DNA from: a virus
Virus record (IMG/VR): IMGVR_UViG_3300035698_019747
Span: 1 to 64,000 of that record
Length of the DNA stretch: 64,000 nt
Strand: one strand, 5' to 3'
The notes under the pieces are model-generated. The model made no database searches and was not told the DNA's origin. It saw only the letters and a program-made list of their open reading frames with translations. The position numbers and the translations under genes were made by a program. This document shows positions 52,664 through 55,414 of the stretch, one piece after another (within the stretch, counting starts at the first letter, position 1; each line of letters opens with the position of its first letter).

Positions 52664-52951
52664 ATGATAGAATTCACATTACAACCGTCTAATAAAAAAG
52701 CTAAATATATTTTTGAAAAAAATATAGATGTACTAAATTTAATAACTATTCATGAGTTAATTTATATCAAGTCACTTAATTGTGCTATTATAACTAATAA
52801 CGCAAACTACTCAATATTATCAACAAATATTTTTATTGATGTTGATGATTATAGTAAAACATGGAGGTGTGTGCTTTCTGATAACAGAAACAAAGTTAGT
52901 TCATATAATTCAGATAGTATTAGTAAATATAATCCAAGGTCGCTAAGTTGA
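52664..52951 (+). CDS. hypothetical protein
   Basis: 95-aa ORF. Confidence 0.5.
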   Translation: MIEFTLQPSNKKAKYIFEKNIDVLNLITIHELIYIKSLNCAIITNNANYSILSTNIFIDVDDYSKTWRCVLSDNRNKVSSYNSDSISKYNPRSLS

Positions 52952-52984
52952 TCATATAAATAATAATAAAAATAAAATAAAAAT

Positions 52985-53767
52985 ATGGATGGAGAAAGAC
53001 AGAGAAATATAAACAAAATATTAATGACACCCTTTAAATATAAGGTATATATAATTGGTCAACACACAGAAGAAATATGGTCAAAAACAAAAAAATACTT
53101 TAATGAACATAAGTCAACCCGATATAAATGGGGTGAGATATCAACAGGGTTTTCTGGATTAGGTTTATCATATCAAGAAGCGGGTGACGATAGTTATGCA
53201 CATTTACATATTATGCCAATATTTGGGAATATTTTTATACACCTAAATAGAAAATATAATTATGATAATACATATGAAGAAGAAAGGCAGTGGGGATTTA
53301 CCTATTACTTCTCACGAGATATGCGGCATGACATTCATTTAAAATTTGGAGATAAATCAAAAATAATAGAATTACCCACTATGTGGGAATGGCAGAGAAC
53401 TTCTACATTACTTAATGATGGTACGTGGGATAATGAAACAAAAGGGAATAGGAAACCATTCACAGGTGAGGAAAACTTAAATATTTTTAAAGAGACACAT
53501 ACTTACACATATACTTTAGAATCGGGTGTAGTACAAAGAAGGAAAGCCACTATAACAGTAAGAGAGATGGAGTGGCGAAGACGAGCTTTACAATGGACGA
53601 ATAAGTTTAACATGGTTATAAAGTCCATAGATATAAATTTTGATGAGGAAGTGGGTGAGCGCAGTGGATCATGGAAAGGTGGGTGCATAGGATGTGGTTA
53701 TAATATGAATAAAAATGAAACTCCTTATGAAACATTAAAAAGAATGCAAAAAGAGCGAAAGTTTTAA
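52985..53767 (+). CDS. hypothetical protein
   Basis: 260 aa; EVGERSGSWKGG motif. Confidence 0.8.
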   Translation: MDGERQRNINKILMTPFKYKVYIIGQHTEEIWSKTKKYFNEHKSTRYKWGEISTGFSGLGLSYQEAGDDSYAHLHIMPIFGNIFIHLNRKYNYDNTYEEERQWGFTYYFSRDMRHDIHLKFGDKSKIIELPTMWEWQRTSTLLNDGTWDNETKGNRKPFTGEENLNIFKETHTYTYTLESGVVQRRKATITVREMEWRRRALQWTNKFNMVIKSIDINFDEEVGERSGSWKGGCIGCGYNMNKNETPYETLKRMQKERKF

Positions 53768-53777
53768 AACTTTTTAG

Positions 53778-53823
53778 TATATTTGCATTATAATAAGAAA
53801 TGGGAAACCAAAAATAATATATA
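53778..53823 (+). promoter_or_regulatory. putative promoters of the tRNA operon: TAnnTTTG box (53778-53785) and TAATATATA (53815-53823)
   Basis: Both recurrent motifs lie upstream of the leader ORF. Confidence 0.55.
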
Positions 53824-53830
53824 TACAGTA

Positions 53831-53908
53831 ATGAAAAAATTAGTAATAACATCAAGTTCACGTAGTAGTCGCAAACACCATTCTGGGGTCAGTTTACTCG
53901 TGCTATAA
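53831..53908 (+). CDS. Ser/Arg-rich attenuator leader peptide MKKLVITSSSRSSRKHHSGVSLLVL (25 aa, not in ORF track)
   Basis: TCA AGT TCA CGT AGT AGT CGC run at 53852-53872; lies between promoter motifs and a terminator ahead of Arg and Ser tRNA genes. Confidence 0.8.
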   Translation: MKKLVITSSSRSSRKHHSGVSLLVL

Positions 53909-53938
53909 CTTTTGTTATAACTAATTAAGTAAAGCCTC
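53885..53938 (+). promoter_or_regulatory. putative antiterminator hairpin
   Basis: GGGGU(53885-89):GCCUC(53934-38), UUUACU(53893-98):AGUAAA(53928-33), UAUAAC(53904-09):GUUAUA(53914-19); overlaps the terminator 5' arm. Confidence 0.65.
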
Positions 53939-53957
53939 ACATATGTGAGGCTTTTTT
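53931..53957 (+). terminator. attenuator terminator upstream of the tRNA array
   Basis: AAAGCCTCAC-ATAT-GTGAGGCTTT followed by TTT. Confidence 0.88.
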
Positions 53958-53979
53958 GGTTTAAAATGTAATATAATAT

Positions 53980-54051
53980 ACCTTTGTCGTCTAACGGATA
54001 AGATACGGTGCTACGGACACTGGGATGGGAGTTCGATTCTCCCCAAGGGCA
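53980..54051 (+). tRNA. tRNA-Arg(ACG)
   Basis: Cloverleaf with anticodon loop CTACGGA and T-arm GGGAG-TTCGATT-CTCCC; A1-C72 mismatch; no encoded CCA. Confidence 0.88.
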
Positions 54052-54065
54052 CTAATAATAAATAT

Positions 54066-54154
54066 GGTAGAATGACAGAGTGGTAATGTGCTGGTTTGCT
54101 AAACCAAGACCATCGGGTAAGACTGATGCAGGGGTTCGATTCCCTTTTCTACCG
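54066..54154 (+). tRNA. tRNA-Ser(GCT)
   Basis: GGTAGAA/TTCTACC acceptor, loop TTGCTAA, long variable arm, G73. Confidence 0.92.
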
Positions 54155-54167
54155 CAAGTAAACAAAT

Positions 54168-54256
54168 GGAGGTGCGCAAGGTTGGCGTGCTTATCGGTCT
54201 TGAAAACCGTGATGTCGGGTAAGACTGACGTGGAGGTTCGATCCCTCTCATCTCCG
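54168..54256 (+). tRNA. tRNA-Ser(TGA)
   Basis: GGAGGTG/CATCTCC acceptor, loop CTTGAAA, long variable arm, G73. Confidence 0.88.
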
Positions 54257-54260
54257 CAAA

Positions 54261-54349
54261 GGTGAAGTGACAGAGTGGTAATGTACCTGCTTGGAAAGCA
54301 GAGATCATCGGGTAAGACTGATGCGGGGGTTCGATTCCCTCTTTCACCG
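54261..54349 (+). tRNA. tRNA-Ser(GGA)
   Basis: GGTGAAG/TTTCACC acceptor, loop TTGGAAA, long variable arm, G73. Confidence 0.92.
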
Positions 54350-54362
54350 CAAGTAAACAAAT

Positions 54363-54451
54363 GGAGGTGCGCAAGGCTGGCGTGCTTATCGGTCTCGAAA
54401 ACCGTGATGTCGGGTAAGACTGACGTGGAGGTTCAATCCCTCTCATCTCCG
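54363..54451 (+). tRNA. tRNA-Ser(CGA)
   Basis: Differs from the TGA copy at 3 positions; loop CTCGAAA. Confidence 0.88.
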
Positions 54452-54716
54452 CAACACAGTTTTTATAATAACTAAAAAAATATTAAAATATGAAAAATAT
54501 ATTCGGAACATATAATATAAAATCAGGGCAATCAGTGTACTTAGAGAAATATTTAAATATTAATTTTATTGAATATATAAAAGTTGATAAGTGTACATTT
54601 ATTTTTTTATGAATCAATCACAATCAGAATACGTACTGAGGATGCTATCACCATATATTGAGAGCAATGAATCTGAGGGGATAATAATAGGGTTATAATA
54701 ATATATATATATATAT

Positions 54717-55184
54717 CTAAGTCTCTTTAATAGGAACAAATAATGAAAAGTTATCATCATCCTCAAAATGGTTACAAGTATCTTGAAAAGTTATGCCAAA
54801 TTTTAACCGATCATATATAAAGTGCTCACCATCCCATGTTGCAATCTTTGCATTTCTATGCCTTCCCACATATGATGTGCCTATTTCCAATTCTTTTTTA
54901 GGAATAGCACCACATCTTATAAGTGCTGGTAATATATAATTTTGATAATCTACCCCCCTTAAGTTCAGTTGTGGGACATCATATATGGATTCAAATTTAA
55001 TATCTAAATCTTTCCAATATTCAATACATAGTTGTCTTTTCTCTTCTACTAAAAATGGCATTAAATCATTTTTTATAGATAAATAATAATCTTTATTATT
55101 AGGATCAGTTATAATCTCTTTAATTAAGTGCTCATACATTTCTTTATATGAATTAAAAGTTTGATTATTATATGTTTTCTCCAT
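54717..55184 (-). CDS. hypothetical protein
   Basis: 155-aa ORF. Confidence 0.75.
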   Translation of the reverse strand: MEKTYNNQTFNSYKEMYEHLIKEIITDPNNKDYYLSIKNDLMPFLVEEKRQLCIEYWKDLDIKFESIYDVPQLNLRGVDYQNYILPALIRCGAIPKKELEIGTSYVGRHRNAKIATWDGEHFIYDRLKFGITFQDTCNHFEDDDNFSLFVPIKET

Positions 55185-55186
55185 TA

Positions 55187-55414
55187 CTATCTGTTTATAG
55201 AATTTATCTTTTTACCCGCAATAAATTTTACCTTTCCAAATGGATTAGTAGCGTCCAATTCTATTAAGTCACCACTTATAGAAAACTTAATAACAGATAC
55301 TCTAGTTTCGCATATATTCCAATATCAAATAAGTGGAACCATAGGTAGCTGATTTCGGAAAATAAAAGAGGCTAAAATTGATAGAAGCCCAATGAGCGTT
55401 AATACAATGTACAT
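55187..55414 (-). pseudogene. small membrane-anchored ORF with one in-frame TGA (55325-55327)
   Basis: MYIVLTLIGLLSILASFIFRNQLPMVPLI*YWNICETR...; ends 2 nt before the next start. Confidence 0.45.

Follow-up and report, generated by a model that had tools for sequence, protein, structure and literature searches.

The trpL, hisL, leuL, thrL, ilvL and pheL elements of E. coli and Salmonella are leader-peptide attenuators of amino-acid biosynthetic operons, and pheST (through its pheM leader) and other aminoacyl-tRNA synthetase genes are under leader-peptide attenuation as well. T-box riboswitches, like the element proposed below, couple transcription antitermination to a particular tRNA and its state; they bind the uncharged tRNA directly, by means of a specifier codon and the T-box sequence, and involve neither a ribosome nor an open reading frame (ORF). 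The tRNA genes of phages are usually discussed in terms of codon usage or of escape from tRNA-cleaving defenses; how phages control these genes is, to our knowledge, essentially unknown, and neither a full-text literature search nor the genome papers that were checked yielded an account of tRNA genes controlled by leader peptides.

Here we propose that a ribosome-mediated (leader-peptide) transcription attenuator heads a phage tRNA operon located in the window, as we refer to the whole 64,000-nt stretch of viral DNA analyzed (positions 1 to 64,000 of IMG/VR record IMGVR_UViG_3300035698_019747). The evidence is computational only, and we put the probability of this reading at about 0.84. The proposed mechanism is classical trp/his-type attenuation, here applied to tRNA genes, and the module most likely raises tRNA production when the codons matched to its cargo are read slowly. 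No Rfam cis-regulatory family reaches threshold in 53000-55000, and the T-box covariance model finds no match there at E values up to 1. Rfam RF01859 (Phe_leader) scores 27.7 bits (E = 0.059) over 53830-53960; membership in this family was rejected, the gathering score being 55 bits and the control codons being those of Ser and Arg, not Phe, and the weak resemblance reflects the generic ORF-plus-terminator layout. The parts of the module, with the order and spacing that sequence and computation give them, are the following:

53770-53844, plus strand: promoter, 5' UTR and leader-start module; promoter activity is inferred
53831-53908, plus strand: leader ORF of 25 codons, with an ATG start and a TAA stop; translation is inferred
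53838-53927, plus strand: protector hairpin (segments 1:2), -23.3 kcal/mol, z = -4.6
53852-53872, plus strand: control-codon run SSSRSSR, codons 8-14 of the leader (TCA AGT TCA CGT AGT AGT CGC)
53884-53939, plus strand: predicted antiterminator (segments 2:3), in which 53884-53898 pairs with 53928-53939
53931-53960, plus strand: intrinsic terminator (segments 3:4), with a 10-bp stem, a 4-nt loop and a T tract
53980-54052, plus strand: tRNA-Arg(ACG), found by ARAGORN; Rfam tRNA model, 44.3 bits
54066-54155, plus strand: tRNA-Ser(GCU), found by ARAGORN; Rfam, 54.1 bits
54168-54257, plus strand: tRNA-Ser(UGA), a long-arm tRNA found by ARAGORN; in Rfam only a sub-threshold match to the tRNA-Sec model
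54261-54350, plus strand: tRNA-Ser(GGA), found by ARAGORN; Rfam, 52.4 bits
54363-54452, plus strand: tRNA-Ser(CGA), found by ARAGORN; sub-threshold Rfam match like that of tRNA-Ser(UGA)

An earlier note on this DNA had described the ORF with its Ser/Arg run, a strong terminator, an alternative hairpin sequestering the 5' arm of that terminator and, 3' of it, one tRNA-Arg(ACG) and four tRNA-Ser genes; all of these were recovered at the positions given above, and the protector hairpin is a feature that it had missed. The promoter motifs that it mentioned are likewise present. The sequence TATATTTG at 53779-53786, 5' of the leader, matches the Bacteroidota -7 box TAnnTTTG; a scan for sigma-70 promoters returned no match at the leader and counts no higher than in shuffled sequence, indicating that the organism uses a different type of promoter. 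The leader ATG lies approximately 45 nt 3' of the box, between promoter and tRNA genes, and the same 10-mer recurs at two further places in the window, each some 20 nt 5' of a start codon. The same Bacteroidota-type box precedes the leaders found in relatives, and an 88% identical copy of the promoter and leader-start module heads the Gln/Pro/Trp tRNA block of the same genome (G000 115729-115803, minus strand). The shared module had no matches in IMG/VR when searched as an exact DNA pattern, nor were relatives of the upstream 260-aa protein found in that database.

No other candidate ORF ends within 60 nt of the terminator, and nine of the leader's 24 post-start codons specify Ser or Arg where 2.8 would be expected (P = 9e-4). 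That the control codons fit the cargo, as first noticed from the sequence, holds for every codon of the run, TCA being readable by the encoded UGA anticodon, AGT by GCU and CGY by ACG. The impression, gained by eye, that AGA dominates elsewhere is matched by Arg codon usage across 106 long ORFs of this genome (AGA, 63%; CGT, 9%; CGC, 2%); CGY being this rare, the two CGY codons of the run are unusual, and they are consistent with the presence of tRNA-Arg(ACG). The orthologous leader in LR756502 keeps much of the Ser/Arg run. Counting against full matching, TCG, which the fourth Ser tRNA, Ser(CGA), would read, does not occur in the leader. A Shine-Dalgarno sequence is absent from the leader, as is normal in Bacteroidota, and translation of the leader thus cannot be argued from sequence and remains an inference. 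The idea that the ORF encodes a small protein with a function of its own was rejected, the conservation of the ORF being confined to the first few residues and its composition following the tRNA cargo.

The terminator stem (53931-53954, followed by the T run) has a folding energy of -14.8 kcal/mol (z = -7.1), and no other strong plus-strand terminator occurs in 52900-55300. In the three Ser/Arg orthologues, compensatory changes at four stem positions keep the pairing. The 5' end of tRNA-Arg lies only 25 nt beyond the stem, too close for an independent promoter of the local type to fit in between; such a promoter 3' of the terminator was accordingly rejected. At no fewer than 17 of 25 loci, some 30 nt or less separate the terminator from the start of the first tRNA, and these short distances imply that the tRNAs must be made by read-through. 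The predicted antiterminator (-12.0 kcal/mol) would take up nine of the ten nucleotides of the terminator 5' arm, and taken alone it is unexceptional relative to shuffles (z = -1.65); none of 200 shuffles folds as well as the protector hairpin, which, in the folding model, occupies the antiterminator strand while the leader is untranslated.

The remaining two multi-tRNA blocks of this phage, both outside the window, have an identical layout with leaders matched to their cargo: the one containing QQWQPQP stands before Gln(UUG), three Pro(UGG) and Trp(CCA), the one containing LLSISIILLL before Leu(UAA) and Ile(GAU). Only six combinations of a short ORF and a terminator accompany the 47 strict terminators of the 152-kb genome, and two of the six are leaders of the kind described here. 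The earlier note had named absence of the leader from relatives that keep the tRNAs as grounds for refutation; 22 modules of leader, terminator and tRNA genes were found in five related huge-phage records, out of 25 in six such records (G000; IMG/VR genomes G001, 271 kb, G008, 508 kb, and G005; and the published genomes LR756502, 642 kb, and LR756501, 735 kb). With one further module in Caulobacter phage phiCbK and three in Maribacter phage Panino, a cultured phage, the total comes to 29 in eight phage genomes, with codon content matched to cargo. Examples include seven consecutive Gln codons 5' of four tRNA-Gln, an SSRSRSS leader 5' of Arg/Ser/Arg tRNAs, and a leader of 42 codons, many of them for T, P, A, V, R or G, whose cargo is Arg, Thr, Val, Ala, Gly and Pro.

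It had also been suggested in that note to look for codon runs that covary with downstream anticodons, and this is what the relatives display. Each cargo amino acid is present in its leader at the first 18 loci, 15 of which show enrichment on their own at P < 0.01 (combined P = 1.5e-39), and none of 200,000 permutations reaches the true pairing of leaders with cargo. When all candidate ORFs of the 25 loci were scored, a test that is proof against selection, the score was 33.8, whereas 100,000 permutations reached 14.6 at most; a single candidate ORF exists at 23 of these loci, and at all 25 the terminator lies 17-47 nt 3' of the leader stop codon. Sequence and computation extend the covariation from amino acids to anticodons. 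Ile is encoded by ATA in leaders of Ile(UAU) and by ATT or ATC in those of Ile(GAU); the Arg codons of the three Ser/Arg leaders, with cargo ACG, UCG or GCG, are exclusively CGN; the Ser/Arg leader of G008, which has no Ser(GCU) gene, uses only TCN for Ser, whereas that of the window, where Ser(GCU) is present, has AGT four times; and one Leu leader samples six Leu codons over a cargo of four Leu anticodons.

We note that the orthologous leaders of related phages are non-independent observations, that four leaders (C3, C4, C6 and E2) are not individually enriched, E2 lacking Glu codons as well, and that no leader was found at several tRNA clusters of the 735-kb phage or at any amber-suppressor-type tRNA. 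A pattern made of the Ser/Arg run and terminator arm had no match in IMG/VR; three matches to it in metagenome contigs, without tRNA genes, were dismissed as due to chance. A nucleotide search of 52900-54700 against cultured phages returned tRNA-Ser similarity only; it was this search that led to Maribacter phage Panino. By terminase, the nearest phage in culture is Tenacibaculum phage PTm1 (32% identity); having no tRNA genes, it is uninformative.

In equilibrium folding with the full terminator, the terminator prevails at all ribosome positions in six of the seven loci tested, such that a switch can only be kinetic, as is the case in trp operon attenuation. Because equilibrium folding was unable to show the switch, it was replaced by a co-transcriptional truncation model in which the RNA is cut just 3' of the terminator 5' arm and the ribosome masks 29 nt. 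At the window locus, the terminator 5' arm is then predicted to be sequestered at 0.84-0.86 with the A site on codons 7-14 and at 0.08 with the ribosome at codons 16-25, in line with the dependence on ribosome position that had been postulated from the sequence; without a ribosome the arm is predicted to be free (0.08 paired). At 16 of 18 loci sequestration drops by 0.2 or more, this genome's Leu/Ile leader and one Glu/Tyr leader being the two with no clear predicted switch. In 11 of the 16, the control run ends no more than two codons away from the last permissive ribosome position (null P = 1e-4), and seven of seven further loci display the same dependence. This structural register is a product of computation; that read-through is regulated is inferred. 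The model also predicts sequestration at 0.6-0.9 without a ribosome in many relatives, where the antiterminator would form by default, and a protector hairpin holding the operon off without translation at the window locus and two others. Cargo-matched codons in relatives and the predicted dependence on ribosome position together support the trp/his-type reading offered in the earlier note, albeit from calculations rather than experiment.

On this reading, transcription would start approximately 38 nt 5' of the leader ATG from the Bacteroidota-type promoter. In a leader devoid of ribosomes, the protector hairpin would form, followed by the terminator, and transcription would stop 20-25 nt before tRNA-Arg. 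Smooth reading would bring the ribosome beyond codon 15, where it would cover the 5' strand of the antiterminator and again allow the terminator to form. If charged Ser tRNA or charged CGY-reading Arg tRNA were scarce, the ribosome would linger on codons 8-14, opening the protector and leaving the antiterminator strand free to pair with the terminator 5' arm, and RNA polymerase would read into the five tRNA genes. The new charged tRNAs would then relieve the stall, a negative feedback by which tRNA supply may be matched to decoding demand. Each tRNA block of this phage and of its relatives would form a separate regulon with its own multivalent leader. Host tRNA-targeting defenses are one of several possible signals, with no evidence either way.

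The natural signal is itself an inference, and it is conceivable, if unlikely, that the same attenuator hardware responds not to a shortage of tRNA species but to host amino-acid supply, aminoacylation state or general translation, as in a late shut-off of the host, in which case the tRNA genes would follow a temporal or physiological program with no feedback loop. A stalled ribosome cannot distinguish a missing tRNA from an uncharged one; the antiterminator predicted to form by default in many relatives means that general loss of translation would also switch on the tRNA genes; and the phage, most of whose Arg codons are AGA, has little CGY-decoding demand of its own. Such a signal does not, however, account for control codons that follow isoacceptors (ATA versus ATY, CGN, AGT only with Ser(GCU)), a refinement needless for an amino-acid sensor, and at the window locus and two others the protector would keep the operon off in the absence of translation.

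That the ORF and terminator function without the antiterminator, through access of Rho or RNase, a trans-acting leader RNA or peptide, or a fixed low level of read-through, appears improbable. Terminators are far more stable than antiterminators at equilibrium, and the Gln/Pro/Trp locus has a second terminator before its first tRNA without any visible antiterminator. Leader peptides and attenuator RNAs that act in trans are reported from Sinorhizobium, which would lend this alternative a precedent. It nevertheless leaves unexplained why, at most loci, the last control codon is separated from the 5' edge of the sequestering strand by half the width of a ribosome, and peptides that are conserved only in a short N-terminus and otherwise vary with the tRNA cargo argue against a function of the peptide. 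Finally, a mere coincidence, in which the terminator ends an upstream unit (gene 52985-53767), the ORF occurs by chance and a tRNA promoter lies near the AT-rich position 53969, can draw on the abundance of short ORFs in AT-rich genomes, on the AT-rich TAATATAATA between terminator and tRNA and on the formal match of TACCTTTG (53979-53986) to TAnnTTTG, but is scarcely credible given 29 cargo-matched modules in eight phage genomes (with none of 100,000 permutations matching the 25 from huge phages), a promoter box placed 5' of the leader rather than of the tRNA, the overlap of TACCTTTG with the 5' end of tRNA-Arg, which a start at that site would truncate, and a distance from terminator to tRNA of only 6-30 nt in most loci.

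Extending the attenuator reading to other phages, we think it likely that phage tRNA arrays are amino-acid-specific regulons in which a closed-loop leader samples the encoded isoacceptors codon by codon, and that this arrangement is widespread, ranging over Bacteroidota phages of 150-735 kb, the 77-kb Maribacter phage and Caulobacter phage phiCbK. If true, this would explain why the tRNA genes of huge phages are sorted by amino acid into blocks, provide a simple prediction of which tRNAs are co-expressed, and suggest how phages could restore exactly those tRNAs missing in the host or destroyed by defense nucleases. It would also furnish compact, naturally occurring reporters of the availability of tRNAs of choice. 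Being present in the cultured phages Panino and phiCbK, the design is directly testable.

Compared with the attenuators of biosynthetic operons, the phage elements have the same short ORF, run of control codons and hairpins 1:2, 2:3 and 3:4, with a decision that depends on ribosome position, and their leaders for several amino acids resemble the multivalent leaders of thr and ilvGMEDA. They differ in residing in phage genomes, in their Bacteroidota-type promoters and in leaders that sample up to seven amino acids; unlike the biosynthetic attenuators, many of the phage relatives lack a protector hairpin. Different, too, is what is regulated, enzymes in the one case and, in the other, the very tRNAs that decode the control codons, from which it follows that the loop senses decoding capacity per isoacceptor. 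If confirmed, the phage elements would thus be a direct, isoacceptor-resolved feedback sensor of this capacity, a class of attenuators whose product is the ligand of its own sensor, and would add a new class of genes to those regulated by a textbook mechanism. The pheST operon is similar in that attenuation acts on a component of the translation apparatus dedicated to the amino acid that the control codons specify; its product charges the tRNA, whereas that of the phage operon is the tRNA itself.

The window, which represents the initial 64 kb of a 152-kb phage genome (G000; ~29% G+C, estimated completeness 56%) and whose gene content includes tail sheath, large terminase and ribonucleotide reductase genes, contains an element that is most likely an attenuator of the trp/his type. 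The parts attributed to it in the earlier note (promoter motif, 25-codon ORF, codon run, terminator, one Arg and four Ser tRNA genes) proved correct in all details and are listed below.

Features of the Ser/Arg locus of the window
53779-53786, + strand: TATATTTG, putative promoter box
53831-53908, + strand: leader ORF of 25 codons with an ATG start
Leader codons 8-14, + strand: control run, TCA AGT TCA CGT AGT AGT CGC
53931-53960, + strand: terminator, 10-bp hairpin plus T tract
Beginning 25 nt past the terminator stem, + strand: tRNA-Arg(ACG)
Block ending at 54452, + strand: four tRNA-Ser genes in the order GCU, UGA, GGA, CGA

The complete leader folds far better than its shuffled versions (z = -5.05). 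AGA, whose dominance had been judged by eye, indeed accounts for 63% of the Arg codons in G000, as opposed to 11% for CGT and CGC together. A search of Rfam ruled out a T-box, and membership of the Phe_leader family was rejected on a match of 27.7 bits (53830-53960; E = 0.059) against a threshold of 55; this likeness is a generic leader-plus-terminator resemblance.

Searching G000 with positions 53770-53980 identified a copy of the first 75 nt of the module (promoter box, 5' UTR and ORF start) at 115729-115803 on the minus strand (88% identity), from which starts a 27-codon ORF with QQWQPQP, followed by terminators, tRNA-Gln(UUG), three UGG (Pro) tRNAs and tRNA-Trp(CCA). A 22-codon ORF with LLSISIILLL and a terminator stand ahead of the third multi-tRNA block of the genome, Leu(UAA) and Ile(GAU) at 104763-104941, and the sole tRNA without a leader is a lone amber-suppressor-type tRNA(CUA) at 107007. 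Combinations of a short ORF with one of the 47 strict terminators of G000 number only six genome-wide; two of them belong to these leaders, and the remaining four appear fortuitous. We note that the attenuator and tRNA-Gln of the Gln/Pro/Trp locus are separated by a second intrinsic terminator, for which no antiterminator was visible, and by a perfect AT-rich hairpin (~115570-115600, minus strand).

Terminase searches recovered as relatives a 271-kb IMG/VR phage (G001; 57% identity), 508-kb (G008) and 53-kb IMG/VR records, and the public records LR756502 (642 kb) and LR756501 (735 kb). Bacteroidetes hosts have been predicted for the largest 'Mahaphage' genomes (Al-Shayeb et al. 2020; PMC7162821). 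Once tRNA genes had been located in the relatives, an automatic search for terminators and short ATG ORFs ending ≤60 nt upstream yielded 22 additional modules, every leader of which holds amino acids of its downstream tRNAs; the covariation of leaders with downstream anticodons, named earlier as a check, is thus found in these 22 and in the two further modules of G000. Examples include seven successive Gln codons ahead of four tRNA-Gln; SSRSRSS ahead of Arg(ACG), Ser(UGA) and Arg(UCG); a run of Lys, His, Phe, Ser and Trp codons ahead of Trp, His, His, Phe, Lys and Ser tRNAs; and a 42-codon leader rich in Thr, Pro, Ala, Val, Arg and Gly ahead of a ~5-kb array of Arg, Thr, Val, Ala, Gly and Pro tRNAs. 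The Ser/Arg module of the window has orthologues in LR756502 and the 508-kb phage, where the T tract and part of the control run are conserved and four terminator-stem positions show compensatory changes. In the 735-kb phage, some tRNA clusters lack a leader and come after protein genes.

The tRNA arrays of G001, LR756502, LR756501 and G008 (stretches L029-L031, L035-L047, L093-L098) consist of recurring amino-acid groups with one leader per group (Ser/Arg; Phe/His/Lys/Trp; Asn/Leu/Ile/Thr/Val/Met; Gln; Asp/Pro; Glu/Tyr with Gly/Ala/Ile(UAU)), which are conserved between phages despite a terminase identity of only 30-57%. Many of these phages' tRNAs form same-anticodon pairs, one member being normal (72-76 nt) and the other 82-95 nt long with a class-II-like variable arm (G001 L029:1776-1946; G000 115219-115313, minus strand; many in L031 and L035-L047); ARAGORN placed a 5-bp variable stem in an 89-nt tRNA-Lys(UUU). 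The long-arm tRNAs serve Lys, Asn, Thr, Val, Cys, Gln, Glu, Met and Pro, for which, to our knowledge, a long variable arm is normally never found. Amber-suppressor-type tRNAs (CUA) occur in four of the phages (G000 107007-107080; L048:786-939; L099:731-803; L103:486-559), each time without a leader ORF, and one LR756502 leader has a TAG stop; TAG may be recoded in part of the genome. Several relatives align with the 747-aa large terminase (window 24507-26753, minus strand) from residue 148 onward only, and in the alignment consensus an intein-like C-terminal motif (…SHN then T) closes the N-terminal 147 residues, suggestive of a putative intein or N-terminal insertion.

Against amino-acid frequencies from 106 long ORFs of G000, 15 of the first 18 leaders were individually enriched for the amino acids of their cargo, the tRNA genes behind the terminator (P from 4e-8 to 6e-3; 0.08-0.25 for the other three), and none lacked a cargo amino acid. 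The combined P was 1.5e-39, and the true leader-cargo pairing scored above all 200,000 permutations. Because orthologous leaders cannot count as independent observations, the P values imply more independent events than there are; permutation errs in the opposite, conservative direction because similar cargo sets occur repeatedly. A repeat free of ORF choice, using all candidate ORFs at 25 loci (a single candidate at 23), scored 33.8, whereas none of 100,000 permutations exceeded 14.6. Four single leaders (C3, C4, C6, E2) showed no individual enrichment.

The matching extends to the codon level, in agreement with the earlier claim that control codons match the cargo. All three Ser/Arg leaders use only CGN for Arg and precede ACG, UCG or GCG anticodons; ATA occurs three times ahead of Ile(UAU), and the G000 leader ahead of Ile(GAU) has only ATT/ATC, though ATA makes up 52% of Ile codons. 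The window leader has four AGT codons and its block a Ser(GCU) gene; the Ser/Arg leader of the 508-kb phage has only TCN for Ser and its block no Ser(GCU). One Leu leader includes CTA, CTT, CTG, TTA, CTC and TTG ahead of Leu tRNAs whose anticodons are UAG, GAG, CAA and UAA, and the Gln/Pro/Trp leader has two CCG, 2% of Pro codons. TCG is missing from the window leader despite the encoded Ser(CGA).

At equilibrium with the full terminator, six of seven loci kept the terminator at every ribosome position; a switch could then only be kinetic, as it is in the trp operon. We modelled the moment before emergence of the terminator 3' arm by truncating the RNA 3 nt beyond the 5' arm and stepping a ribosome mask of 29 nt along it, one codon at a time. 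For the window, three overlapping hairpins are predicted (protector, -23.3; antiterminator, -12.0; terminator, -14.8 kcal/mol). Without a ribosome, the protector (53838-53927) would hold the partner strand and the terminator 5' arm is paired at 0.08; the ribosome-position dependence proposed as a check emerged in the model, with pairing of 0.84-0.86 for an A site at codons 7-14 and 0.08 at codons 16-25. Pairing dropped by ≥0.2 in 16 of 18 loci, two lacking a clear predicted switch, and in 11 of the 16 the last permissive position lay ≤2 codons from the control-run end (P = 1e-4 vs random placement). Seven additional loci behaved alike. Many relatives have no protector and would therefore read through without translation. 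Parts, spacing, covariation and register are thus shown by computation alone.

The earlier note named an independent tRNA promoter downstream of the terminator as a refuting condition. In the window, tRNA-Arg begins just 25 nt beyond the terminator stem, and the lone TAnnTTTG-like box downstream of the terminator (53979-53986) overlaps this tRNA; in at least 17 of 25 loci the gap is ≤30 nt. By inference from spacing, and not from measurement, the tRNAs have no evident source other than read-through that starts at the leader promoter.

The attenuator idea is open to testing in cultured phages. Three modules occur in Maribacter phage Panino (PP540027.1; 77 kb): a leader with QRLHQELEQP ahead of Pro, Glu, Gln, His, Leu, Leu and Arg tRNAs; AATGIAIIGRTKDK ahead of Ala, Lys, Ile, Gly, then Asp, Thr and Val tRNAs; and a third ahead of Tyr, Ser, Ser, Asn, Trp and Phe tRNAs. 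One Panino leader ORF is annotated as the 33-aa hypothetical protein PANI_CDS0108 (67989-68090; L049:2220-2321); its start codon lies just 4 nt past the TATATTTG box, and the mRNA may therefore be leaderless. At the single locus examined in Caulobacter phage phiCbK (JX100813), a promoter-proximal ORF with QFVRQIQVVRNI and a strong terminator precede Phe, Val, Ile, Ile, Val, Gln, Gln and Ile tRNAs.

Interpretation of the window element as an attenuator is thus supported. Slow decoding of the Ser/Arg run would leave the antiterminator free and let polymerase enter the tRNA genes; rapid decoding, or absent translation at this locus, would lead to termination. The loop would be self-limiting because its products decode the control codons. 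That the leader is translated and read-through regulated is inferred, as is the natural signal (a lack of tRNA, its charging level or the state of translation), and tRNA-cleaving defences, suggested earlier as the trigger, remain possible. Full-text literature searches gave no account of such tRNA-gene control, although most subscription journals were outside their scope and an earlier description is not excluded; neither 'attenuat' nor 'leader' occurs in the text of the huge-phage (PMC7162821) and phiCbK genome papers. The window element fulfils all sequence-testable criteria of leader-peptide attenuators, and the phage elements differ from the known ones in cargo and setting: they precede tRNA genes, reside in phages and have multivalent leaders.
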